64,000 bases of DNA from a virus. Shown here piece by piece: positions 425 to 22,270 of this stretch. Where the stretch lies: the UHGV virus genome UHGV-1370948, one strand, 5' to 3'. The notes beneath the pieces were generated by a model, which saw only the letters and a list, made by a program, of their open reading frames with translations, had not been told where the DNA came from and did not search any database. A program made the position numbers and the translations under genes. Within the stretch, counting starts at the first letter, position 1. The number at the start of each line of letters is the position of its first letter.

Positions 425-682
425 GTGATTATGTTTACTGAAACTGTTCTAGCCAAGCACACATCTTCCATTAGCGAGTTTAAAAAGAACCCTTCTGCCG
501 CTATGAGCGAGTCTAATGGCGAGCCTGTGGCTGTACTTAGCCACAATAAACCTGCTTTTTACTGCGTCCCACCAGCACTGTTTGCTCTTATGATCGACCA
601 TATTGGCGACCAGATGCTTCTTGAGAAGGCCGTGGGTAGGCTGGACGATGAAGAGGTTGAAGTCAGCCTGGATCAGCTGTAA
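425..682 (+). CDS. Phd/YefM-family antitoxin-like small protein (no cognate toxin adjacent)
   Basis: About 85 aa with an N-terminal ISEFKKNPSAAMSESNGEPVAVLSHNKPAFY pattern typical of Phd/YefM antitoxins. Lies directly upstream of hsdM. An ATG at 431 is an alternative start. Confidence 0.4.
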   Translation: MIMFTETVLAKHTSSISEFKKNPSAAMSESNGEPVAVLSHNKPAFYCVPPALFALMIDHIGDQMLLEKAVGRLDDEEVEVSLDQL

Positions 683-836
683 TGAGTAGTGGTTTCAAGG
701 TAAAAATCATCAATGATTAACAGTCGACTCTATAGTTCTCACAATGTCCGCATAATCGTAATATACTAATCCTGTTAGTGATTTAATCTACCTACCAAAC
801 CGTGGGCAACACATTCTATTAATCAGGAAAACGCAG

Positions 837-2389
837 ATGACCAGCCTGCAACAACGCGCCGAATTACACCGTCAGATATGGGCTATTGCGAACGAGGTTC
901 GCGGTGCCGTTGACGGATGGGACTTTAAACAATACGTCTTAGGGGCGCTGTTTTACCGTTTTATCAGTGAGAACTTCACCAGTTACATCGAAGCCGGTGA
1001 TGACAGTGTTCAGTATGCCGGAATGGCTGACAGTGATATTGGTGATGAGATTAAGGACGATGCGGTCAGAACAAAGGGGTATTTTATCGCTCCAAGCCAG
1101 CTGTTCTGTAATGTGGCGAAGCGTGCCAATACGAATGACCACCTGAATGCTGATTTAAACAGTATCTTTGTTGCGATTGAAAGCTCTGCATCCGGTTATC
1201 CGTCAGAAGCCGCCATTAAGGGACTGTTTGCTGATTTTGATACGACCAGTAACCGGCTGGGCAGTACCGTTAAAGAGAAAAATATCCGGCTTGCTGCGGT
1301 ACTGAAAGGGGTTGAGGGGCTGGCTCTCGGGGATTTTGATGCCCATCAGATTGACCTGTTCGGTGATGCCTATGAGTTTCTGATATCCAATTATGCCGCC
1401 AATGCGGGTAAGTCCGGCGGTGAGTTCTTTACCCCGCAGCATGTCTCTAAGCTGATTGCTCAGCTGGCCATGCACGGACAGACCTCCGTCAATAAAATCT
1501 ATGACCCTGCGGCCGGTTCAGGTTCTCTGCTGCTTCAGGCCAAGAAACACTTTGATAATCACATTATCGAGGACGGTTTCTTTGGTCAGGAGATTAACCA
1601 TACGACCTTTAACCTGGCGCGTATGAATATGTTCCTGCACAACATCAACTACGACAAGTTTGATATCCGGTTAGGGAACACATTACTGGCCCCTGAATTT
1701 AAAGACCAGAAGCCGTTTGATGCGATTGTGTCTAACCCGCCGTACTCCGTGAAATGGGTGGGCAGTGATGACCCGACCCTGATTAACGATGACCGCTTTG
1801 CACCTGCGGGGGTACTGGCCCCGAAATCTAAAGCTGACTTTGCATTCGTACTTCACGCCCTGAATTACCTGTCTGCGAAAGGCCGTGCCGCGATTGTCTG
1901 TTTCCCCGGCATTTTCTACCGTGGCGGAGCTGAGCAGAAAATCCGACAGTATCTGGTTGATAACAACTATGTGGAAACCGTGATATCACTGGCCCCGAAC
2001 CTGTTCTTCGGTACCACCATTGAGGTTAATATTCTGGTGCTGTCAAAGCATAAGGCCGACACCAAAGTACAGTTTATCGATGCCAGCAGTCTGTTTAAGA
2101 AAGAGACCAACAACAACGTTCTTACCGATGCCCATATAGAACAGATTATGGCGGTGTTCGACAGTAAAGCCGATGCAGACTATCTGGCTAAATCTGTTAC
2201 TGCTGAAGCCATTGCAGCTAATGATTACAACCTGTCTGTCAGTAGCTACGTGGAAGCCAAAGATACCCGCGAAATCGTCAACATAGCCGAACTGAATGCT
2301 GAGCTGAAAAAGACCGTCACCAGAATAGACCAGCTTCGTACTGATATTGATGCGATTGTTGCTGAGATTGAAGGTAGCGAGGTACAGGC

Positions 2390-2393
<4 letters not shown>
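837..2393 (+). CDS. hsdM: type I restriction-modification methyltransferase subunit HsdM (EcoR124-like, type IC)
   Basis: 518 aa. Carries the N6-adenine MTase motifs ([15 protein letters not shown]). Overlaps the hsdS start by 4 nt. Confidence 0.92.
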
Positions 2394-3607
<1,214 letters not shown>

Positions 3608-3732
3608 CATAAACGCCCCTGCCAGAGAGAATATCTGGCTGGCAGGGTTGTTTGCATAGCTATAGCCCGATATTCACACTCTAAGGGCATCACCGTTTCA
3701 TTCTTCGCAGCATAACGACAGCAGGGAGCAGC

Positions 3733-6700
3733 ATGACACAGCAGACCAGAACCATCGCCGAATCCAATAACTTCATCGTGCTGGATAAATACGTTACAGA
3801 ATGGGAAGCCGGTGACCGCTACCAGAGTGAGTCGGAGTTAGAGCGCGAGCTGATTCAGGACTTGCGTAATCAGGGCTATGAGTTTGTGCCTGATTTAACC
3901 TCCCAGTCGGCGATGCTGGCGAATGTCAGGGTGCAACTTCAGACACTGAATCAGGTGGTGTTTAACGAAGGCGAATGGCGACGTTTTACCGAGCAGTATC
4001 TGGATAATCCGAGCGATACGATAGTCGATAAGACCCGTAAAATTCACACCGATTACATCTGTGACTTTACCTTCGATGACGGACGACTGGAAAACATCTA
4101 CCTGATTGACAAGAAAAGCCTTGTCCGTAACAAGGTGCAGGTTATCCAGCAGTTTGAGCAAACCGGCAGCCATGCCAATCGCTATGATGTCACGGTGCTG
4201 GTTAACGGCTTACCTCTGGTGCAAATCGAACTGAAAAAGCGGGGCGTAGCGATTCGGGAAGCCTTCAATCAGATACACCGCTACAGCAAAGAGAGCTTTA
4301 ATACCGAGAACTCCCTGTTCAAATATTTGCAGCTCTTCGTGATTTCAAACGGAACCGATACCCGTTACTTTGCCAATACCACAAAGCGGGATAAAAACAG
4401 CTTTGATTTCACCATGAACTGGGCGCGGTCTGATAACACCCTGATTAAAGACCTTAAAGACTTTACCGCCACCTTCTTCCAGAAACACACCTTACTCAAT
4501 GTTCTGTTCAACTACACCGTGTTTGATGTCAGCAACAATCTGCTGATTATGCGTCCCTACCAGATAGCAGCGACGGAGCGGATTTTGTGGAAAATCAACG
4601 GGGCTTATCAGGCAAAAAAATGGAGCTCCAGAGAGGGGGGCGGCTTTATCTGGCACACCACAGGTAGTGGTAAAACCTTAACCAGCTTTAAAGCCGCAAG
4701 GCTGGCAACTGAACTGGATTTCATTGATAAAGTGTTCTTTGTGGTTGACCGTAAAGACCTTGATTACCAGACTATGAAGGAGTATCAGCGTTTCTCACCT
4801 GACAGCGTTAATGGCTCTGACAGCACCGCAGGGCTGAAGCGTAATCTGGAGAAGAATGACAATAAAATCATTGTCACCACAATCCAGAAACTGAACAACC
4901 TGATGAAAGGTGAAGCCGATTTACCGGTCTATCAGCAACAGGTGGTCTTTATCTTCGATGAGTGTCACCGCAGTCAGTTCGGTGAAGCCCAGAAGAACCT
5001 GAAAAAGAAATTCAAACGTTTCTATCAGTTTGGCTTTACCGGTACACCGATATTTGTCGGTAAAAATGCCTTAGGGGATGAAGACACCGCCAGCGTATTC
5101 GGGGCAGAACTACACTCTTACATCATCACCGATGCTATTCGTGATGAAAAGGTGCTCAAGTTTAAAGTCGATTACAACGACGTTCGCCCGCAGTTCAAAG
5201 AGCTGGAAACGGAAACAGACGAAAAGAAACTCAGCGCCGCCGAGAATAAACACGCTTTGCTGCATCCGATGCGGATTAGCGAAGTCACGCATTACATCCT
5301 GAAGAATTTCCGTCAAAAAACACATCGGGCATTCTCTGGTGCTACAGGCTTCAATGCCATGTTTGCCGTCAGCAGTGTGGATGCAGCCAAAGCCTACTAT
5401 GAAGCGTTCAGAATCATACAGCAGTCGGCTGTTGAACAGGATAAGAACTACAAGCCTCTGAAGGTGGCGACCATCTTCTCCTTTGCCGCCAATGAAGAGC
5501 AGGACGCGGTCGGTGATATCAATGATGAAGGGTTTGATGTCACGGCGATGAACAGCAGTGCGCGGGAGTTTCTGGAATCGGCTATCAGTGACTACAATGC
5601 CATGTTTAAGGTTAACCATAGTACTGATGGCAACAACTTCCAGAACTACTATCGTGACCTCTCTGAGCGCGTCAAAAAGCAGGAAGTAGACCTGCTGATT
5701 GTGGTCGGGATGTTCCTGACCGGATTTGATGCCCCGACACTCAATACCCTGTTTGTGGACAAGAACCTGCGCTACCACGGCCTGATGCAGGCATTCTCCC
5801 GCACTAACCGGATTTATAACGCCACCAAAACCTTCGGGAATATTGTCACCTTCCGTGATTTAGAACAGGCCACAGTGGATGCCATTACCCTGTTCGGGAA
5901 GAGCAATACCCGAAGCGTGGTGATGGAAAAAAGTTATGACGAGTACATGGAAGGCTTCACGGACACGCTTACCGGAGAGGCGCGACGTGGCTTCACAGAT
6001 ATCGTGAGCGAGCTGGAGACGCGTTTCCCGAAACCCGCAGACATTGAGTCCGAAAAAGAGAAAAAAGCCTTCGTTAAGCTGTTCGGGGAATATCTTCGGG
6101 TAGAGAACATACTGCAAAACTACGATGAGTTTACCACGCTGAAAGCGCTGCAAACTGTTGACCTCAGTGACCCGGTAGCCGTGGAGGCGTTTAAAGCCGG
6201 GCACTATCTGGATGATGAGGCTTTCGCTGTGCTCCAGACAGTACGCTTACCCGCTGAGCGTAAAATTCAGGACTATCGCTCCAGCTACAACGATATCCGT
6301 GAGTGGCAGCGCCGTGAGCGTGATGCAAACACCAAAGATAAAAATAGCGTTGACTGGGATGATGTGGTCTTTGAGATTGATTTGCTGAAATCGCAGGAGA
6401 TTAACCTCGATTACATCCTGGGGCTGATTTACGAGCATCATCAAAAGAGTACGGATAAAGAGACGCTGAAAGAGGAAGTGAAGCGCTTAATCCGGGCCAG
6501 TCTGGGGAACCGTGCAAAAGAGGGGCTGATGGTCGATTTTATCGAACAGACGAATCTCGATGCCCTGCCGGGCAAAGAGGGCGTCATTGAAGCCTTCTAT
6601 ACCTTTGCACAACAGGCTCAGCAGCGTGAGGCAGAAGCCTTAATCAAAGAGGAAAACCTGAATGAGGACGCCGCCCGGCGCTACATCAGAAATTCTCTCA

Positions 6701-6855
6701 AGCGCGAATATGCCACGGAGAACGGCACTGCGCTGAATGAAACATTACCTAAGCTCAGTCCGCTGAACCCACAATACAGAACCAAAAAGCAGACGGTCTT
6801 TCAGAAGTTCGTGGCCTTTATCGATAAGTTCAAAGGCGTCGGTGGAAGTGTCTGA
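3733..6855 (+). CDS. hsdR: type I restriction endonuclease subunit HsdR (EcoR124-like)
   Basis: 1040 aa. SF2 helicase motifs (TGSGKT, DECH) and strong resemblance to R.EcoR124I as recalled from memory. Confidence 0.92.
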
Positions 6856-6950
6856 TACATCTGATATCACATGGGAGGCTTCGGCCTCCTGATTAAGTTC
6901 TCAGGATTTCTCTCCGCCATATGAAACCATACGGAATAGTTGTGCTGTAG

Positions 6951-7241
6951 GTGATTAAGTCATTTGCGAACAAGTGTCCAACTTATTTGCTAATAGGGGA
7001 TCAGATAAATGCGAATGCACAGGTATTGGCAAAGCGTATGGAGTCTCTTGGTGCCTTGACAATGCCGAAAAATAGGCTCTCACTTAAACACAATTGCTAC
7101 AAGATTAAGCTAAAGAATGACGGTTATCGTCTGGCCTATACGGTCAGAGACGACGAGAACGGGGAAGTTAGCGTTGTTGCCGTGGATAGACGTGATGAAA
7201 TTTACAACGAATTGAAGAAAAGGCTTGATGCTGATGTTTGA
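6951..7241 (+). CDS. RelE/ParE-superfamily (HigB 'killer'-like) toxin
   Basis: 96 aa. Starts MIKSF and has the C-terminal KHNCYKIKLKNDGYRLAYTVRDDENGEVSVVAVDRRDEIY pattern of RelE/ParE-fold toxins. Confidence 0.5.
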   Translation: MIKSFANKCPTYLLIGDQINANAQVLAKRMESLGALTMPKNRLSLKHNCYKIKLKNDGYRLAYTVRDDENGEVSVVAVDRRDEIYNELKKRLDADV

Positions 7242-7554
7242 TAGATTATCCCCAGAGCAAATTCGCGAGTTCCTGCTGGAACAAGGGTTTTTGAGAGTAC
7301 GCCAGCTCGAAGACAGTAGTTGGATCGGTGTGCTAAGGCTTGCTTTTACAACGTCGGTCTGTATGGATATTGACGAATTTTCGCCCTTTCGTTATCGCTG
7401 GTGTTTCGCTGACCCAGCAGAGGCAAACCACTTTTTCGAGACGGCCGTAGATTATGACGAAGCGCCGACGAAGCGCGATTCGTTGAAGGGGCACCGGTAT
7501 CGTGGTGAGCCGCTTCTGCGTGAAAAGGATGAGTTCGGCTTTGATAAGTGGTAA
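7225..7554 (+). CDS. hypothetical protein, possible antitoxin partner of the upstream toxin
   Basis: 109 aa. Overlaps the toxin ORF by 17 nt. No recognisable HTH motif. Confidence 0.3.
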   Translation: MMLMFDRLSPEQIREFLLEQGFLRVRQLEDSSWIGVLRLAFTTSVCMDIDEFSPFRYRWCFADPAEANHFFETAVDYDEAPTKRDSLKGHRYRGEPLLREKDEFGFDKW

Positions 7555-7637
7555 AAACTGTGGTTTTACTTGCACTGCGCTACAGTATAGAATGACAAGC
7601 GTTGTACATAGCCAGCAAAATGCGGGCGGTAAAAATT

Positions 7638-8162
7638 ATGAAAGAATCAATCACAAAAATTGCAATGGTTTTGGCGCTTGCCTTATCCGGGATAACGCAT
7701 GAATCGTGCGCTAAAGAAACTGTATGCGCTCAGCACATCGTTGCCCCTGGCATCGGCGTATCGTTCAGCGAGGAAGTTATGTCAAACATCAATAAGATGA
7801 ATGAGGTAACTGCAGAAGGTCGTGAACTTTACGCGAGAATTGATGAACTTGCAGAACGCGACTATGAAGCGGCAAAAATGGCTGCTGAGGGGATGCGTGC
7901 AGACATCATCGGAGCCTTGGCTATTGCTGAATTTTTATTCCAGGCACTGCCAGATGTTTCGGTGATCCGTTCATTCCCCAAAGACTCGATGCAGTACAAA
8001 CTTTGCAGAGCGGTCGCAGAAGCACGACACAATGCAAAAAATCTGGACAACCTGTTAAATCAGATACTGAACGTCAGCCCGTATCGTGAGTCAAACATCA
8101 ACCACGATGCACTGACATTACTAGCGGAACGTGGTACAAGGGCTGCGGCTAAATGGCATTGA
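7638..8162 (+). CDS. hypothetical secreted protein
   Basis: N-terminal signal-peptide-like segment MKESITKIAMVLALALSG, then a helical body. Overlaps the downstream toxin-like gene by 10 nt. The ORF could start earlier, at 7602. Confidence 0.35.
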   Translation: MKESITKIAMVLALALSGITHESCAKETVCAQHIVAPGIGVSFSEEVMSNINKMNEVTAEGRELYARIDELAERDYEAAKMAAEGMRADIIGALAIAEFLFQALPDVSVIRSFPKDSMQYKLCRAVAEARHNAKNLDNLLNQILNVSPYRESNINHDALTLLAERGTRAAAKWH

Positions 8163-8569
8163 TTGTCGAATTTAACCCGGATACAAGATCCGAGTTTTTA
8201 GACCCAACTTTCAAAAAGTACCCCGATTTAGAAAGCCAACTCAAAGCCGAATTTATTTATTGTAAGACGAAAAACGTCACAACGAATATTTTCGGCAACG
8301 ATGCCATTTTCACTTTCCCCTCTTACGCAGTAGAGGCACAGTTGTCTCGCGTTCATATCAAGCTGCCGAGCGAAGCGCCGTGGCCCCACGGCATACCCGA
8401 TCGTCAAAAGAAAAGTAACACTTACCTGGTTTACGCCCAGCATATGTGGAACCTTTCGAGCTATTCCATTCTGGCTCTTGTAACTCCAGCGCATGACCTA
8501 ATGAGTGCAGCAAACACTCAACTAATTTCTCGCTTTTCAGCCTACGCAGAGGCTTTTCACTCCCGTTAA
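8153..8569 (+). CDS. YafO-like toxin (ribosome-dependent mRNA interferase family)
   Basis: 138 aa. Blocks IFGNDA, RVHIKL, LVYAQ, ILALVTP and AEAF align with E. coli YafO as recalled from memory. Confidence 0.4.
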   Translation: MALIVEFNPDTRSEFLDPTFKKYPDLESQLKAEFIYCKTKNVTTNIFGNDAIFTFPSYAVEAQLSRVHIKLPSEAPWPHGIPDRQKKSNTYLVYAQHMWNLSSYSILALVTPAHDLMSAANTQLISRFSAYAEAFHSR

Positions 8570-8621
8570 TCTGCAAGACAGAGTCCCATAAAGACCATCA
8601 GATTTCATCAAAACGCCCTTT

Positions 8622-8654
8622 TGTGATTCCATACCTATAGAGTATGGAATCACA
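8622..8654. repeat. perfect 12-13-bp inverted repeat (tgtgattccatac / tatggaatcaca) with an 8-nt loop
   Basis: Direct read. No U-tract follows on either strand, so it is not a canonical terminator. Candidate operator or recombination site upstream of the integrase. Confidence 0.5.
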
Positions 8655-8704
8655 GGAAAAAAACGGTTATTCTGGGTTGACCTTATAGCTAAAATACCGT
8701 TAAA

Positions 8705-8724
8705 TACTGTATATACATACAGTT
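8705..8724. promoter_or_regulatory. LexA (SOS) box TACTGTATATACATACAGTT immediately upstream of the integrase start
   Basis: CTGT-N8-ACAG with an AT-rich spacer, about 18/20 matches to the E. coli consensus TACTGTATATATATACAGTA. Ends 2 nt before the annotated ATG at 8727. Confidence 0.7.
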
Positions 8725-8726
8725 AC

Positions 8727-9773
8727 ATGGAGGCGGCGATGTTAAATTCGTTCGAGATCGATAAAGCTTTGGAAAATTGTTCTGCTGAAACAGTTCAATA
8801 TCTCCAGCGCTGCCAAACCATGACCGGCTCACAAATGATGGCCATGGATGCCGATTCGAAATTCAGTGAAGCCTTTATGTTTTTCACGCGTTTATCACTC
8901 CTTGTGACTCGGCGGCGTCCTGAGCTGGGTGTTCACTGCATTCTCATTCACGCCATGCCGGTTATCGGCGACAAAAAAGTTTCGGACATCAACCGCCTCA
9001 CAGTTAACAGACTAATTAATGCCTTGGTGTTGGATGGCAAGTTAGTACAAAGCCGGCGCGTTTTTTCTGTTTTAAAACAGTTCCTTGGGTGGTGTGAGTT
9101 CCAGGGCGTGATCGAGACTTCCCCACTTGGAGCGATGTCTCTTAACAAAGTTGCTGGCGGACTGAAGCCAAGACCTCGGGAGCGTGTGTTGTCGGATGAT
9201 GAGCTGGAAAAATTTTGGCACATGTGGGACTTTGCCGATGTTTCAGAGAGCACGCGTTGGGCCGCGCGTTTCGTGCTCTGCTCAGCCAGACGGCCGGATG
9301 AAGTGCTCCGGGCTAAACGAGCTGAATTCGATCTCAATAATGATGTATGGAATCAGGGTAGTAGGAATAAGTCTGGTCGTGAACATTCACTACCCATTAG
9401 CCCCATAATGAAGCTGTGCATTAATAAAATGATGGCCGCAGCCGGGAATAGCGAGTGGCTAGTTCCCTCCCCAAAGAATGAGACGAAGCCTGCATCCAAG
9501 GTTCTGATAGCTCAGGCATCAAGAAGAATTATGAGTAGAGATTATCTTTCCGATAACATCCCGGCCCCCTTCGAAATCAGAGATTTACGAAGAACGGCCA
9601 GAAGCACACTCTCTCGACTTGGTGTAGAGCAAGACGTGGCTCGTAAAATCATGAACCACAGTCTTGAGGGAATAGATCGCGTCTATGACAGACACGACTA
9701 TCTTGACCGAATGTCCGAGGCAATGTCAGCATACTCTGAATTCTTAATTGAAACATGTAAGATCAATCAGTAA
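8727..9773 (+). CDS. tyrosine recombinase / phage integrase
   Basis: 348 aa. C-terminal catalytic region with conserved Arg (ARRPDE), an RRTARS box and the RVYDRHDY tyrosine motif. An ATG at 8739 is an alternative start. Confidence 0.8.
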   Translation: MEAAMLNSFEIDKALENCSAETVQYLQRCQTMTGSQMMAMDADSKFSEAFMFFTRLSLLVTRRRPELGVHCILIHAMPVIGDKKVSDINRLTVNRLINALVLDGKLVQSRRVFSVLKQFLGWCEFQGVIETSPLGAMSLNKVAGGLKPRPRERVLSDDELEKFWHMWDFADVSESTRWAARFVLCSARRPDEVLRAKRAEFDLNNDVWNQGSRNKSGREHSLPISPIMKLCINKMMAAAGNSEWLVPSPKNETKPASKVLIAQASRRIMSRDYLSDNIPAPFEIRDLRRTARSTLSRLGVEQDVARKIMNHSLEGIDRVYDRHDYLDRMSEAMSAYSEFLIETCKINQ

Positions 9774-10068
9774 TACCTAACTTACTCTTCAGAGCATCAT
9801 TTTCATTCTTTATTTTTTTAACAAATTCATAGATTTCGGGGAATCTCTCGGATAAGTACATCATCATAAAATCGTCTGGCGGCGCACCAACAGCTCTCGC
9901 GAATGGGATGACCTTGTCTAACGAAAGATGAGCACGGCCAGATTTGATGAGAGAAATGTTGTTAGCGTTCTCAAATCCAACTTCTTTTGCAATCTGAGCT
10001 TGTGTTTTGCCACAGGTGAGCATCGCTGCGGTCATAAACGGACGGTAACGCCCTTTGGGTTCGTACAT
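9763..10068 (-). CDS. XRE-family HTH transcriptional repressor (cI/C2-like)
   Basis: 101 aa. HTH segment TQAQIAKEVGFENANNISLIKSGR. Lies divergent to the early region, with direct-repeat operators just upstream. Confidence 0.7.
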   Translation of the reverse strand: MYEPKGRYRPFMTAAMLTCGKTQAQIAKEVGFENANNISLIKSGRAHLSLDKVIPFARAVGAPPDDFMMMYLSERFPEIYEFVKKIKNENDALKSKLGITD

Positions 10069-10092
10069 GTTATAGTCTGCCTTGTATTGAAT

Positions 10093-10149
10093 TATTTTAG
10101 TAAGTAAGTAACCACATACTATTAAATCATTTTAGTAAGTAATCACATA
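10093..10149. promoter_or_regulatory. two direct repeats ATTTTAGTAAGTAA(GTAAC/TC)CACATA, candidate operators of the divergent repressor
   Basis: Direct read at 10093-10117 and 10129-10149. Both contain the TAAGTAA half-site that is also found in the dispersed palindromes. Confidence 0.5.
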
Positions 10150-10369
10150 TTTACGTATTGTTCAAGACTAAACCACTAAACCAAAAATGTAAACCCACAC
10201 CGCCAACTTTGGGCTACGGCGCTAAATAACCACAAAATAGAATAAAAATCAATAGGCTAAGTCTGCTTTTTTGATGCAAATTTGTTGTAATCTTAAAAAA
10301 ATAATAGTAACTTTGACATGAATCATTTAAGACATACTAATAAGCAATAAACTATTTAATGGTATTAAC

Positions 10370-10635: not shown

Positions 10636-10672
10636 CATACCCATAAATAATAAGCATTTATTTATGGGTATG
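10636..10672. promoter_or_regulatory. perfect 15-bp inverted repeat CATACCCATAAATAA / TTATTTATGGGTATG ending 2 nt before the cobT-like start codon
   Basis: Direct read. The loop taagcat relates it to the ATAAGxxTTACTTAT palindrome family. Confidence 0.5.
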
Positions 10673-14193: not shown

Positions 14194-16562
14194 AGGCATT
14201 AATGGTACGCACCGATTTTTCTCTTGGTGAATCGGCGCTGAAAGCAAGCCGCGTAGCGAAGGCTGCGAAAGAGTTAGGTTATTCAGCCATTATCAGCGCA
14301 GACACAATGAGTCTGGCTTCAATCATCCCGCTGCAGCAGTCGGCTGGTGATGACCTGGCTGTTATTTGCGGCGTCCGTCTGGTCATTAGTGACAATCCGC
14401 TTTATGAAGGCATGGTCAGAAAAGCCAAAGAGGAAGGTACAGAGATTCCGGTATGCAAGCCTGGTCGTCTGTACAGCTTCACAGCGTTGATAAAGAACGA
14501 TGAAGGGTATAAAGATCTGTGTGAGCTGATGACGTTGGGCAACCGCCGCGAACAGTTTTACTTTTTCCCGCGCATCTCGTTGGAGCAGCTGGCCGAAACG
14601 TATTCAAAGGGCAACATCCTTCTACTGACGTCTGATCGCGATAGCATATTTCATCGGCAGGACTTCGTTAAAATCCTGACTAAATTGCTGGAGGTTGGTG
14701 GGCGTGGCAACTTCTACAGCGTTGTGTATCCGATTGCTACGCCTCTCTACGATCAGTTGAACATGAAGGCGATGAAGGTGGCTAATGCGCTTAAAATCGC
14801 CCCTGTTGCGTTCTATCCAGCTTATTACGAGAAAGAAGAGGACGCAGACCTGCGCGACATTGCGCATATGGTTATCAATAACATCAAAACGGATCAGCCA
14901 TATCGTTTTCACATCCCACACCAGCGCGACAACTCAATCCAGAACCGCAAGCATTTGCTGGTTCGCTTGATGGAATTCTCGAAACGCATGGGTATCGAGG
15001 GTATTAGTTCCGCGATGGTTAACGAGACTCAGGACGAAATCATTGCGGCGTGCAGCTGGCGCTGGCATGAGATGCCGGTCAGTCTGCCAGTTATGGCGGA
15101 AGATGAGGGTGATTCGTTGACGCGAATGGCGGCAGAAGGATTGAAGCGTCGTTTAACAACGCTTGAATTTGGTTGGAAGCCACCAGCAGAGCAGTATCAG
15201 GTTTACATCAACCGTTTACGTTATGAGTTGAGTGTTCTGAAAAAGCTGGGATTTTGCGGCTACTTCCTGATGGTTGAAAATCTACTGTCATGGGCGCGTA
15301 AACAGGATATCCCGGTCGGGCCGGGTCGCGGATCGTCCGCCGGTTCACTTGTTGCGTGGGCGATTGGGATCACCAACATCGACCCGCTACGCCACGGTCT
15401 CCTGTTTGAGCGCTTCATCAACCCTGAACGTCTGGATTTGCCTGACGCGGATCTGGACTTTAGCCAGGCGCTCCGCCCCCGCGTTCTCGAATATCTTGAA
15501 GAGCATTACGGCGAAAAATATGTGGCTGGCATTCCAAACTTCTCTTATCTGGGTATGGCGTCGGCACTACGTGACACGGCACGTATCTACGGCGTGTCTA
15601 CCGAAGATATGGCGGTATCTAAGCAGTTGAAGCAATTCGATGATGAGGGATTATCTCTTGAAGAGACTCGTGAGCAGCTGGGCGCCCTCGACAAATACGC
15701 GAAAGCAAACCCGGAAGCATTCGACGCCGCGTGCAAACTCCAGTCACTGATGCGCAGCTATGGTAAGCACGCCGCGGGTGTCATCGTTTCTGGCGTACCA
15801 CTGACTGAGCGAACACCAGTTGAATTACGCAACGGGGTGCGCTGTATCGCGTTTGACAAGCGTTTCTGTGAATCTATGGGGCTTATCAAGCTGGACGTGT
15901 TAGGGCTGGCTACGCTCGATCTACTGGCTCTCGCTAAACGCTACATCAAAGAGAACGAGGGGATCGACGTTAACCTCGACGCAATCCCTCTCGATGATAA
16001 ACGCGTCCTTGAGGGTATGGCGTTGGGTGAAACAACTGGCGTGTTCCAGTTCGAGTCTGGCGGCATGAGAAACCTGCTTAAAAACCTTGGAAGCGGCATC
16101 AAACCAATGTCGTTTGAAATGGCCGTCGCCACTACCGCGCTATATCGCCCAGGCCCAATGCAGTCCGGCATGATGGATACCTACGTCAGCGTTGCGCGTG
16201 GTTATGAGGACGCTCACTCACTTCACCCAAGCCTTGACGAATTGACCAAAGAAACCAACGGGGTTTTGGTCTATCAGGAACAAATCATGAAAGCGTCGCA
16301 GATCCTCGCCGGCTTCTCTCTGTCGGAAGCAGATATGGTAAGGAAGGCGATTGGTAAAAAAGACATCGAGAAGATGAAAAAGATTGGTGCCGACTTTTCA
16401 GATCGTGCGCAGCTTGGTTGGTTGGAAGTCCAGACTGACGACGGCCAGATTGTCACTGTTCATCGCGCCGCGCTTCATCCGTGCTCTGATGGTAAGAAGC
16501 GCACTGTCGAGCAAGCCATGAAAGAAGATGCCGACATTATTGAATTTGACACCTCTAAGTAA
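14190..16562 (+). CDS. dnaE: DNA polymerase III alpha subunit, N-terminal piece (PHP, palm and part of the fingers domain)
   Basis: 790 aa. PHP domain at the N-terminus. Core motifs GPGRGSSAGSLVAWAIGITNIDPL, LFERFINPER and LYRPGPMQSGMMD match DnaE. Confidence 0.85.
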   Translation: MKALMVRTDFSLGESALKASRVAKAAKELGYSAIISADTMSLASIIPLQQSAGDDLAVICGVRLVISDNPLYEGMVRKAKEEGTEIPVCKPGRLYSFTALIKNDEGYKDLCELMTLGNRREQFYFFPRISLEQLAETYSKGNILLLTSDRDSIFHRQDFVKILTKLLEVGGRGNFYSVVYPIATPLYDQLNMKAMKVANALKIAPVAFYPAYYEKEEDADLRDIAHMVINNIKTDQPYRFHIPHQRDNSIQNRKHLLVRLMEFSKRMGIEGISSAMVNETQDEIIAACSWRWHEMPVSLPVMAEDEGDSLTRMAAEGLKRRLTTLEFGWKPPAEQYQVYINRLRYELSVLKKLGFCGYFLMVENLLSWARKQDIPVGPGRGSSAGSLVAWAIGITNIDPLRHGLLFERFINPERLDLPDADLDFSQALRPRVLEYLEEHYGEKYVAGIPNFSYLGMASALRDTARIYGVSTEDMAVSKQLKQFDDEGLSLEETREQLGALDKYAKANPEAFDAACKLQSLMRSYGKHAAGVIVSGVPLTERTPVELRNGVRCIAFDKRFCESMGLIKLDVLGLATLDLLALAKRYIKENEGIDVNLDAIPLDDKRVLEGMALGETTGVFQFESGGMRNLLKNLGSGIKPMSFEMAVATTALYRPGPMQSGMMDTYVSVARGYEDAHSLHPSLDELTKETNGVLVYQEQIMKASQILAGFSLSEADMVRKAIGKKDIEKMKKIGADFSDRAQLGWLEVQTDDGQIVTVHRAALHPCSDGKKRTVEQAMKEDADIIEFDTSK

Positions 16563-21202: not shown

Positions 21203-22270
21203 ATGAAAAAGTCACCATTAGCAGTAGCCATGAAAAAACGTATCGGCGGAAATGATGAGATCCAGAAAGTCGAGCAATGGCTGGACACCGGTTTTCCCCC
21301 GTTAAACGAAGCCGTTTCTGGTGATCTGGAAGGCGGTCTTCCTTGTGGGCGTATTGTGGAGATTTTTGGACCTCCGTCTGCAGGCAAAACTTTCCTCGCA
21401 ACCCGCGCGATGATTGCAGCGCAGAAGGTCGGAGGTATCGCCGTATTCCTCGATCATGAAAACAGTTTTGACGTTGGTCTGGCTGAAGTTATGGGACTTC
21501 AATCTGATGAAGATGAAGGTAATTGGGTCTATAAGCAGCCTGACACCTTTGAGGATGCCATCGACTTGACCGGGCAAATCTTGTCTCTGGTTCGCAAGGA
21601 GAGTCTGATCCCAGCTGAAGCGCCCATCGTCATTGTCTATGACTCGCTGGCCTCAATGGTTCCGCGCCAGAAGTTCGAGAAGTTCGAGAAGATGGCGGAT
21701 GGCACGGCCAAAGAGAAAGACGAGCTGAATATGAACGACAACACGGCACTGGCTCGCGCGACTTCGGCAAATCTCCCAACGCTGGCTAAGTGGGCGCAGA
21801 AGTACAATGCCTGCCTCATTTTCCTGAACCAGGTTCGTACAAAAATGGGCGTCATGTTCGGAGACCCTACCACTTCACCAGGCGGCGACTCCCCGAAATT
21901 CTACGCTTCCGTCCGCATCAAGCTGGGTGGCGGTCAGTTGAAAGAAGGCGGCGATCGTGTTGGTCAGCTGGTTAAAGCAGAGTGCGTCAAAAACAAGGTG
22001 GCGCCACCGTTCCAGAAATGTGAATGGAACTTCTACTTCGACCCTTCGCGTGGTCTGGACGTCGTAGAATCGCTTGTAGAGTACATGCTTGATAAGGGAT
22101 ACATTCCGAAGACGTCCACCGGGCGCATCGAGATTGGCGACAAGAAGTATACAAAGTCCCAGATCGTCGATATGTACCGCGAGAAGGATTTGAGCGAAAT
22201 CGTGAAGGCTATTAAGTCGATTCAGGCGAAGATGAAGTCAAAGGACGAATTAGAGCCAGCTGACGCGTAA
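21203..22270 (+). CDS. RecA/UvsX-family recombinase
   Basis: 355 aa. Walker A GPPSAGKT. RecA-like core order with loop L1/L2 regions. Confidence 0.7.
   Translation: MKKSPLAVAMKKRIGGNDEIQKVEQWLDTGFPPLNEAVSGDLEGGLPCGRIVEIFGPPSAGKTFLATRAMIAAQKVGGIAVFLDHENSFDVGLAEVMGLQSDEDEGNWVYKQPDTFEDAIDLTGQILSLVRKESLIPAEAPIVIVYDSLASMVPRQKFEKFEKMADGTAKEKDELNMNDNTALARATSANLPTLAKWAQKYNACLIFLNQVRTKMGVMFGDPTTSPGGDSPKFYASVRIKLGGGQLKEGGDRVGQLVKAECVKNKVAPPFQKCEWNFYFDPSRGLDVVESLVEYMLDKGYIPKTSTGRIEIGDKKYTKSQIVDMYREKDLSEIVKAIKSIQAKMKSKDELEPADA

Follow-up and report, generated by a model that had tools for sequence, protein, structure and literature searches.

A near-consensus LexA box on the candidate promoter of a predicted simple-site tyrosine recombinase in SSU5-type phage-plasmids

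SOS-controlled integron integrase promoters were reportedly described by Guerin et al. in 2009. The recombinase Cre acts at loxP to resolve multimers in P1, and to our knowledge LexA control has not been described for cre. LexA-controlled induction of temperate elements is exemplified by the tum antirepressor of coliphage 186 and by LexA co-repression in GIL01. The LexA motif of the intI promoters is CTGT-N8-ACAG, and in PintI of integrons the LexA box partly overlaps the -10 element (Cambray et al., 2011; PMC3108266). Here we describe a locus in the virus genome UHGV-1370948, a 64,000-nucleotide stretch of DNA (hereafter the window), in which a tyrosine recombinase gene is preceded by the same LexA motif and by a perfect inverted repeat. 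By comparison with known systems, the regulatory logic of the locus appears to be that of SOS-controlled intI and its enzyme-plus-site logic that of Cre/loxP, with descent apparently from neither family. A LexA-repressed recombinase promoter is of a known kind and is here attached to an undescribed family of simple-site recombinases; in the searchable literature on SSU5, pHCM2, pMT1 and on phage-plasmids with LexA or integrase, no description of the box or the site was found.

The window is a stretch of a Klebsiella phage-plasmid related to the K. quasipneumoniae plasmid pKqq_SB1124_3, the closest complete plasmid (~115 kb, non-mobilizable, SSU5/pHCM2 phage-plasmid type), to which it is 99.8% identical across the first 25 kb and ~90% identical at the far end. 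The locus was compared with a set of 25 loci from species genomes, three annotated phage records and 111 IMG/VR contigs, which are cited by L numbers where they have to be told apart. The comparison of upstream regions covered 80 distinct sequences, and conservation by column was taken from a MAFFT alignment of 54 distinct sequences. Loci of the phage-plasmid type (n = 113, Yersinia pestis among them) encode recombinases that are 56-100% identical to the protein of the window. LexA sites were scored with a position weight matrix made from 25 E. coli LexA sites, and the scores are approximate. The replicon-wide scan for LexA sites covered the window and the remainder of pKqq_SB1124_3 (~115 kb).

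The sequence TACTGTATATACATACAGTT at 8705-8724 (no strand assigned) matches the 20-nt LexA consensus TACTGTATATATATACAGTA at 18 of 20 positions, with CTGT-N8-ACAG intact, and none of 100 dinucleotide shuffles of the window contained a LexA match with three or fewer mismatches. Its score of 27.7 bits exceeds those of all 25 training sites (maximum 26.3), and the runner-up on the replicon, at 11.9 bits, lies inside the range of the shuffle maxima (10.5-20.2). Because of this difference, the box appears to be the only credible LexA box on the ~115-kb replicon. The pattern CTGT-N8-ACAG occurs twice in the window, at 8707 and at 14469, where ~0.64 copies are expected by chance; the copy at 14469 has a GC-rich core and is probably a chance occurrence. 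We consider it very likely that 8705-8724 is a LexA operator on the promoter of the recombinase gene.

A candidate sigma-70 promoter was recognized at 8677-8705 on the + strand, and its assignment rests on conservation. The candidate -35 element is TTGACC (8677-8682; TTGATC in most relatives), with 96% column conservation against ~71% for the flanks, and the candidate -10 element, separated from it by 17 nt, is TTAAAT (8700-8705; TAATAT in most relatives), with 93% column conservation. The last T of the candidate -10 element is position 1 of the LexA box, a register that is fixed in all lineages that carry the box. As the two elements share one base, bound LexA would cover the end of the -10 element and the start-site region, a typical placement for an operator. 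A Shine-Dalgarno sequence, GGAGG (8729-8733, + strand), begins after a gap of 4 nt from the end of the box and lies 5 nt ahead of the start codon at 8739, which itself follows the box end by 14 nt; GGAGG followed by ATG or GTG is kept in relatives at 80-99% identity, and the PGAP annotation of the identical gene in NZ_CP084809.1 also starts at the ATG at 8739. No structured leader RNA was found in the leader of the recombinase gene (z-score 0.65).

The original prediction had proposed a near-consensus LexA box that abuts the start codon of the recombinase gene and puts the gene under direct SOS control. The box was found exactly where it had been placed, and direct SOS control agrees with the sequence in that the box overlaps the candidate promoter, that box, -35 and -10 stand out as conserved islands, and that the box is kept in 103 of 113 loci (see below). 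The remaining part, the abutting start codon, was correct only in the sense that an ATG (8727) does follow 2 nt past the box and is the first ATG of the longest open reading frame (ORF). As a start codon this ATG was rejected, because it is not conserved in relatives at 80-90% identity (L117 has ATT; L031 lacks the upstream ATG and starts with GTG), has no Shine-Dalgarno sequence and is not the start used by PGAP. With the conserved start at 8739, the box overlaps the candidate promoter and not the start codon.

A box of at least 19 bits (19-28 bits) was present at the same position in 103 of the 113 loci of the phage-plasmid type, whereas two of the others have a decayed box and eight come from a lineage whose upstream region is short and of a different kind. 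The hosts of the box-bearing clade include Klebsiella, Escherichia, Salmonella, Kluyvera, Yersinia pestis and others. No LexA box was found upstream of the recombinase gene in any of 21 Rahnella, Ewingella and Hafnia loci, nor upstream of the homologs on a Xenorhabdus phage-plasmid, an Erwinia plasmid and a Pantoea megaplasmid. Other LexA hits of at least 15 bits numbered only six in 1.13 Mb of fetched DNA. Column conservation was 0.98 for CTGT, 0.995 for ACAG, 0.96 for the -35 and 0.93 for the -10 element, compared to 0.71-0.76 for the promoter spacer, the inner 8 nt of the box, the leader, the DNA between the elements and the spacer of the palindrome described below. The inner 8 nt of the box (0.76) occur in ~16 versions with the half-sites intact. 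Judged from the alignment, the LexA half-sites appear to be under purifying selection relative to the inner 8 nt and the flanks, and the pattern is the one expected for a functional LexA operator that was acquired in one phage-plasmid clade and has occasionally been lost. In five loci of the lineage without an upstream box (L030, L032, L054, L119 and L126), a LexA-like sequence of 16.8 bits, CACTGTACAAATACTCAGTA, is located ~976 nt into the 376-aa recombinase gene, in its 3' part; it represents one evolutionary event, and its score is in the chance range.

The recombinase gene (8739-9773, + strand) encodes a 344-aa protein of the lambda/P4 lineage without an arm-binding domain, as judged from Pfam, NCBIfam and structure prediction. 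The protein matches the Pfam family Phage_integrase (PF00589; E 1.5e-8), and the P4-type model of NCBIfam matches residues 72-337 only, starting at profile position 138, so that the arm-binding part lies outside the match. A database search delineated a family of ~106 clusters at 46-98% identity, all from Enterobacterales, and the arm-binding domain PF13356 was not found in any of these clusters. Beyond the family, identity falls to 27-31% in P4-type integrases, which do carry PF13356. The catalytic residues R185, K211, R284, H307 and Y316 are invariant or nearly so among 59 sequences; R284 lies within the motif xDLRRT, and position 281 is Arg, not His. A sequence search of the PDB gave no match at E up to 1. 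The AlphaFold2 model (pLDDT 91.9) consists of a helical N-terminal part, a core-binding domain and a catalytic domain, and with this model Foldseek found lambda Int residues 75-356 as best match (E 3e-7), with Tn1549 Int and XerH also at the top and with IntI4 (2a3v) and Cre (E ~2e-2) weaker than lambda Int. Sequence and model together indicate a simple two-domain tyrosine recombinase from the integrase lineage.

Upstream of the gene lies a perfect 13-7-13 inverted repeat, TGTGATTCCATAC-CTATAGA-GTATGGAATCACA (8622-8654, no strand assigned), which accompanies every homolog, whether on phage-plasmids, other plasmids, a megaplasmid or chromosomal-type contigs. It is present as one perfect copy, always on the same side and 74-136 nt upstream of every homolog examined, including those of Xenorhabdus, Erwinia and Pantoea. 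Its arms are strongly conserved (0.97 and 0.98) and its spacer is not (0.71), the 7-bp centre varying freely in at least 13 versions. The arms co-vary between clades in a compensating way, with nearly invariant TGATTCCATAC arms in the phage-plasmid clade versus TGACTCCAGAC / GTCTGGAGTCA in distant homologs. The pair of palindrome and recombinase gene also occurs in surroundings with no further gene in common, namely on a 507-kb Pantoea megaplasmid, an Erwinia plasmid and Rahnella/Ewingella replicons, where the neighbouring genes encode an MCP, an ABC transporter, an EgtB/D-like fusion, a TonB-dependent receptor or H-NS. The palindrome is probably the core crossover site of the adjacent recombinase, of the lox/FRT/att-core type, and a centre of 7 bp is in keeping with the lambda lineage. 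The window and the rest of the closest plasmid together contain one full copy: no second full site in the window rose above shuffle level (best 17/26, with shuffle maxima of 16-18), and none was found on the closest complete plasmid, where the next best match was an isolated arm (19/26).

The palindrome was also considered as an intrinsic terminator and rejected as such, because no T-run follows the stem on either strand. In close relatives, the spacer centres occur as exact reverse-complement pairs, namely CTATAGA/TCTATAG, CTACTAT/ATAGTAG and CTATTAA/TTAATAG (the window at 8635-8641 compared with L043, L080 and L140; L027 with L029; L002 with L005). These pairs were rejected as proof of recombinase action, since template switching at a hairpin loop yields the same outcome and they are therefore not diagnostic. 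A degenerate A/T-rich motif, CAGATTTCATCAAAAC (8594-8609, + strand), is found to the left of the palindrome, and variants of the form CAGA(A/T)TT(T/C)AAAAAA recur at this distance from the palindrome (13-28 nt) in numerous left flanks that otherwise have nothing in common; the motif could be an accessory element of the site or the end of a shared module. In Rahnella and Ewingella (L008, 4206-6383; L023, 4168-6351), the recombinase gene is followed by a gene for a conserved 725-aa DinB_2/FGE-sulfatase/methyltransferase fusion (EgtB/EgtD-like) and the upstream genes differ, and here the site, the recombinase gene and the fusion gene may form a small two-gene island.

Set beside the described systems, the locus shares with the intI promoters of class 1 integrons and of Vibrio cholerae intIA an E. 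coli-type LexA box ahead of a tyrosine recombinase gene (here partly overlapping a candidate -10 element), the position of this gene beside its probable primary recombination site and a variable gene region, and the loss of the box in some lineages. It differs in that the protein is of lambda/P4 and not of IntI descent (the sole match to an Xer/integron-type NCBIfam model scored 16.6 bits against a cut-off of 220 bits), in that a single full site, a simple duplex palindrome, stands in place of attC-type cassettes with their repeated boundary sites, and in that the host element is a phage-plasmid backbone and not an integron platform. Like Cre/loxP of P1 (and Flp/FRT), the locus combines an arm-less recombinase of ~340 aa with a single nearby site of two 13-bp inverted arms and a short asymmetric spacer, on a low-copy plasmid prophage in which multimer resolution is expected. 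In contrast to loxP, the spacer is 7 and not 8 bp long and the site is located directly upstream of the promoter, and descent from the Cre family finds no support in the PDB sequence search or in the Foldseek ranking, in which Cre came far behind lambda Int. The nearest relatives outside the family are the P4/CP4-57 integrases (PRK09692; PF13356 + PF22022 + PF00589), with which it has in common the core-binding and catalytic domains and a 7-bp centre like the overlap regions of the lambda type. A helical region of ~70 residues here replaces their N-terminal arm-binding domain, and no arm-type sites, attL/attR pairs or integrated state were seen; with its single symmetric site and the extrachromosomal state given in the literature, the system does not resemble an integrative integrase of the lambda/P4 type. 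The catalytic residues, the missing arm-binding domain and the inverted-arm site near the gene are features that the locus shares with simple-site recombinases.

Copies of a single arm of the palindrome were found elsewhere in many phage-plasmids. These half-elements, (A/G)TGATTCCATAC-ATC, are present in one or two copies in constant orientation, 1.2-7.3 kb left of the full site. Examples of an isolated arm followed by ATC (ATGATTCCATACATC) are found in L029 (726), L141 (22528-22545), L147 (3051, 4074 and 8598) and many IMG/VR loci, and the Klebsiella lineage has one half-element 2.7 kb before the window. In one class the half-element falls on the start codon of a short hydrophobic ORF (MIPYI..., SSU5_047), and in a second class it lies upstream of a tRNA-Asn gene. 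The 15 nt of the half-element show no synonymous variation, although the codons after them differ. SSU5 retains three half-elements despite having no recombinase gene. No half-elements were found in the Xenorhabdus element, where co-variation of half-elements with arm type is uninformative. The 7 nt that follow the arms of the half-elements never equal the spacer of the full site; there is thus no shared overlap region, and productive crossover with the full site is unlikely. Inside the recombinase gene there is, oddly, a 14-nt antisense match to the half-element (9342-9355). The exact arm copy within it (9345-9355) was rejected as a half-site, as it is mostly explained by a conserved V/I/L-W-N-Q motif with drifting codons (GTT in 38 loci).

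The region to the left of the palindrome, from the glutaredoxin gene onward, holds the cargo of the element (~450-8569): a Phd/YefM antitoxin, a type I restriction-modification (R-M) system (hsdM, hsdS and hsdR, the latter at 3733-6855), a ParE-like toxin (6951-7241) and a YafO-family toxin (8153-8569). A 186-aa ORF without family match (7602-8162) lies upstream of the YafO-family toxin gene and overlaps it. The same position in relatives holds unrelated cargo, such as, in Xenorhabdus, a colicin/pyocin DNase with its immunity gene together with ParE/Phd. The palindrome forms the right edge of this hypervariable region, with 38 unrelated clusters of left flanks compared to few types of right flanks, and the break in homology is located ~30 nt left of the arm, past the A/T-rich motif and not inside the site. 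The recombinase gene, the LexA box and the palindrome belong to the conserved backbone and not to the cargo island. In E. coli, yafNOP belongs to the LexA-controlled dinB operon. The box of the window was considered as part of a YafO/cargo module and rejected as such, because it is kept in the backbone of relatives that carry unrelated cargo.

On the other side of the recombinase gene, a convergent gene (9763-10068, - strand) encodes a 101-aa XRE-type helix-turn-helix (HTH) regulator; the last 11 nt of this gene are shared with the recombinase gene. The protein has weak matches to Pfam HTH_31 and HTH_3 below the curated cut-offs and a match to a transcriptional-regulator PHROG, and is 48% identical to a 'putative repressor' of Cyrano. 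The convergent HTH gene is present in all 101 phage-plasmid loci with enough sequence and absent from all 21 chromosomal-type loci, and no intrinsic terminator was predicted on the + strand after the stop codon of the recombinase gene. The region directly upstream of the HTH gene (10085-10150 and 10223-10239) contains direct repeats of ~31-35 bp, two in tandem (TATTGAATTATTTTAGTAAGTAACCACATAC / TATTAAATCATTTTAGTAAGTAATCACATAT) and a partial third; these repeats are candidate operators or iterons and are unrelated to the recombinase site. Further on, a perfect 15-7-15 inverted repeat, CATACCCATAAATAA-TAAGCAT-TTATTTATGGGTATG (10636-10672), ends 2 nt before the start of a CobT-like gene (10675), and a gene at 21203-22270 (+ strand) encodes a RecA-like protein of 355 aa, which shares 35% identity with E. 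coli RecA across 289 residues and could interact with the host LexA control of the recombinase promoter. The block of phoH, grx, cargo, site, recombinase and HTH genes is missing from the type phage, Salmonella phage SSU5 (L147, NC_018843.1 38273-49597), where the order is DNA ligase and small ORFs, tRNA-Asn and CobT, consistent with the description of SSU5 as virulent. Outside the window, in the closest complete relative (L142 19026-19943; NZ_CP084809.1 108125-109042), the IS5-family element ISEc35 splits the tape-measure gene, and because of this insertion the plasmid is probably defective as a phage.

Control of the recombinase gene by LexA, and hence by the SOS response, is well supported, on the basis of sequence only, and DNA damage very probably turns the recombinase on. 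We infer LexA binding at the box, SOS inducibility of the promoter, crossover at the palindrome and a role in resolution, and the explanation that unites them, a LexA-repressed sigma-70 promoter driving a recombinase that acts at the palindrome in multimer resolution, has in our judgement a somewhat better than even chance of being correct as a whole. In an undamaged cell, a dimer of host LexA on 8705-8724 would cover the end of the -10 element and the likely transcription start and keep the gene nearly silent. Upon DNA damage, RecA-stimulated self-cleavage of LexA would free the promoter and the level of the recombinase would rise. The two-domain recombinase would then most likely act on the only 13-7-13 palindrome, which lies 50 nt ahead of the promoter, and with one site per replicon the reactions would run between copies of the element, turning multimers into monomers as Cre does at loxP in P1. 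LexA control could in this way boost resolution at the time when recombinational repair and induced replication make multimers. SSU5-like phage-plasmids are reported to be exclusively extrachromosomal (PMC9600943), and this state together with the single site per replicon makes multimer resolution the best-supported role and, by analogy, the likeliest one.

Several points weigh against this explanation. The sigma-70 promoter upstream of the recombinase gene is our own reading of the sequence, and a generic promoter scanner gave no call for 8677-8705, because its rule needs an A at position 2 of the -10 element. The LexA weight matrix gives approximate scores. A tightly LexA-repressed promoter is awkward for a housekeeping resolvase that is needed continuously. 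The box is absent in ~9% of the phage-plasmid loci and in all homologs outside the clade with TGATTCCATAC arms, and SOS control would therefore be an added layer and not intrinsic to the recombinase. The half-elements persist in SSU5, which has no recombinase, and the arm may be read by another protein; their presence makes it slightly less certain that crossover is the palindrome's only function.

The alternative explanations differ in the part of the locus that they call into question. With regard to the box itself, short palindromes are frequent in AT-rich promoter regions, and 8705-8724 might be a chance AT-rich inverted repeat or the site of a protein encoded by the element. We regard this as highly improbable, as the shuffled sequences gave no match as good and as conservation across more than 50 distinct sequences follows the LexA half-sites and leaves the spacer free. 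Among genuine E. coli LexA sites, the forms CTGG..CCAG and CTGG..ACAG also occur, and the variants of the box in L109 (CTGG..CCAG) and in L034 and L081 (CTGG..ACAG) resemble them. A different role for the recombinase was part of the original prediction, in which SOS-induced recombinase would excise or rearrange the R-M/toxin cargo or the phage-plasmid; in its wider form, the recombinase would excise, invert or capture cargo, or integrate and excise the whole element. The likeness to integron integrases that had been drawn there is apt, as the LexA boxes of intI also partly overlap the -10 element (PMC3108266), and a LexA-controlled recombinase beside its primary site recalls intI/attI. The palindrome does border the hypervariable region, and arm copies in the same orientation lie to its left with variable cargo between them and the full site. 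However, as each replicon has a single full site, a monomer offers no segment that could be excised or inverted, and excision of the cargo is unsupported, the recombinase gene, the box and the site all being part of the backbone. The check for att-like repeats near 400 and 10080 that had been suggested there showed no partner site, and the direct repeats at 10085-10150 are unrelated. The half-elements stand at backbone positions (the start of a small gene, upstream of a tRNA gene) and not at cargo junctions, and the nucleotides flanking them never match the spacer; the homology break falls outside the site, the protein lacks an arm-binding domain and does not belong to the IntI proteins, and the elements are reported only in the extrachromosomal state. 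Cargo movement or integration as the function of the recombinase is thus very unlikely.

A third explanation leaves the operator in place and changes its purpose: the promoter would be the SOS sensor by which the element leaves the plasmid-prophage state, with lysis triggered by the recombinase itself or by transcription into the HTH gene, whose product would become scarcer through transcriptional interference or antisense RNA. It is compatible with multimer resolution as well. This explanation draws on the position of the only credible LexA box of the ~115-kb replicon at this locus, on the overlapping tail-to-tail recombinase/HTH pair in 101 of 101 phage-plasmid loci, on the annotation of the Cyrano homolog as a putative repressor and on the loss of the whole site-recombinase-HTH block in the virulent SSU5. 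SSU5-like phage-plasmids were inducible by mitomycin C in four of five cases, for which no mechanism was given (PMC9600943), although phage induction failed in one Klebsiella relative (PMC8969562). In another phage-plasmid, N15, the antirepressor is a LexA-controlled induction gene (PMC11652158), and the likeness to N15 antC is that a plasmid prophage without a self-cleaving repressor reads SOS via a single LexA box; a self-cleaving protein of the LexA/CI/UmuD (S24) type was not detected on the replicon by tblastn, a search of low sensitivity. Unlike antC or 186 tum, the regulated gene is here a recombinase and not a recognizable antirepressor, and it could be linked to induction only through convergent transcription or if its product had a second activity. 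The HTH protein as lysogeny repressor is a supposition, the convergent pair also occurs in lineages without a box (the lineage with the short upstream region and Xenorhabdus), and the terminator that was not predicted past the recombinase stop codon is weak evidence for read-through into the HTH gene. We consider a role as induction sensor unlikely. A broader version, in which the box is the only SOS input of the SSU5/pKpn/pSLy3/pMT1 supergroup and the recombinase locus doubles as a lysis-lysogeny switch, the trigger of which would be LexA-gated head-on transcription into the HTH gene or a regulatory activity of the recombinase at the half-elements, seems quite unlikely.

Phage-plasmids of the SSU5 type are often found in clinical Klebsiella, E. 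coli, Salmonella and Enterobacter, and the group includes pMT1 of Yersinia pestis. They carry resistance and defence cargo beside the recombinase locus. Sensing of DNA damage by these elements is not described in the literature searchable here, and the conserved single LexA operator offers an entry point to it. The arm-less 344-aa recombinase and its 33-bp palindromic site form a compact, undescribed pair that occurs across phage-plasmids, plasmids and megaplasmids in Enterobacterales and is a potential recombination tool. In strains with these elements, SOS-inducing antibiotics are predicted to raise the activity of the recombinase.

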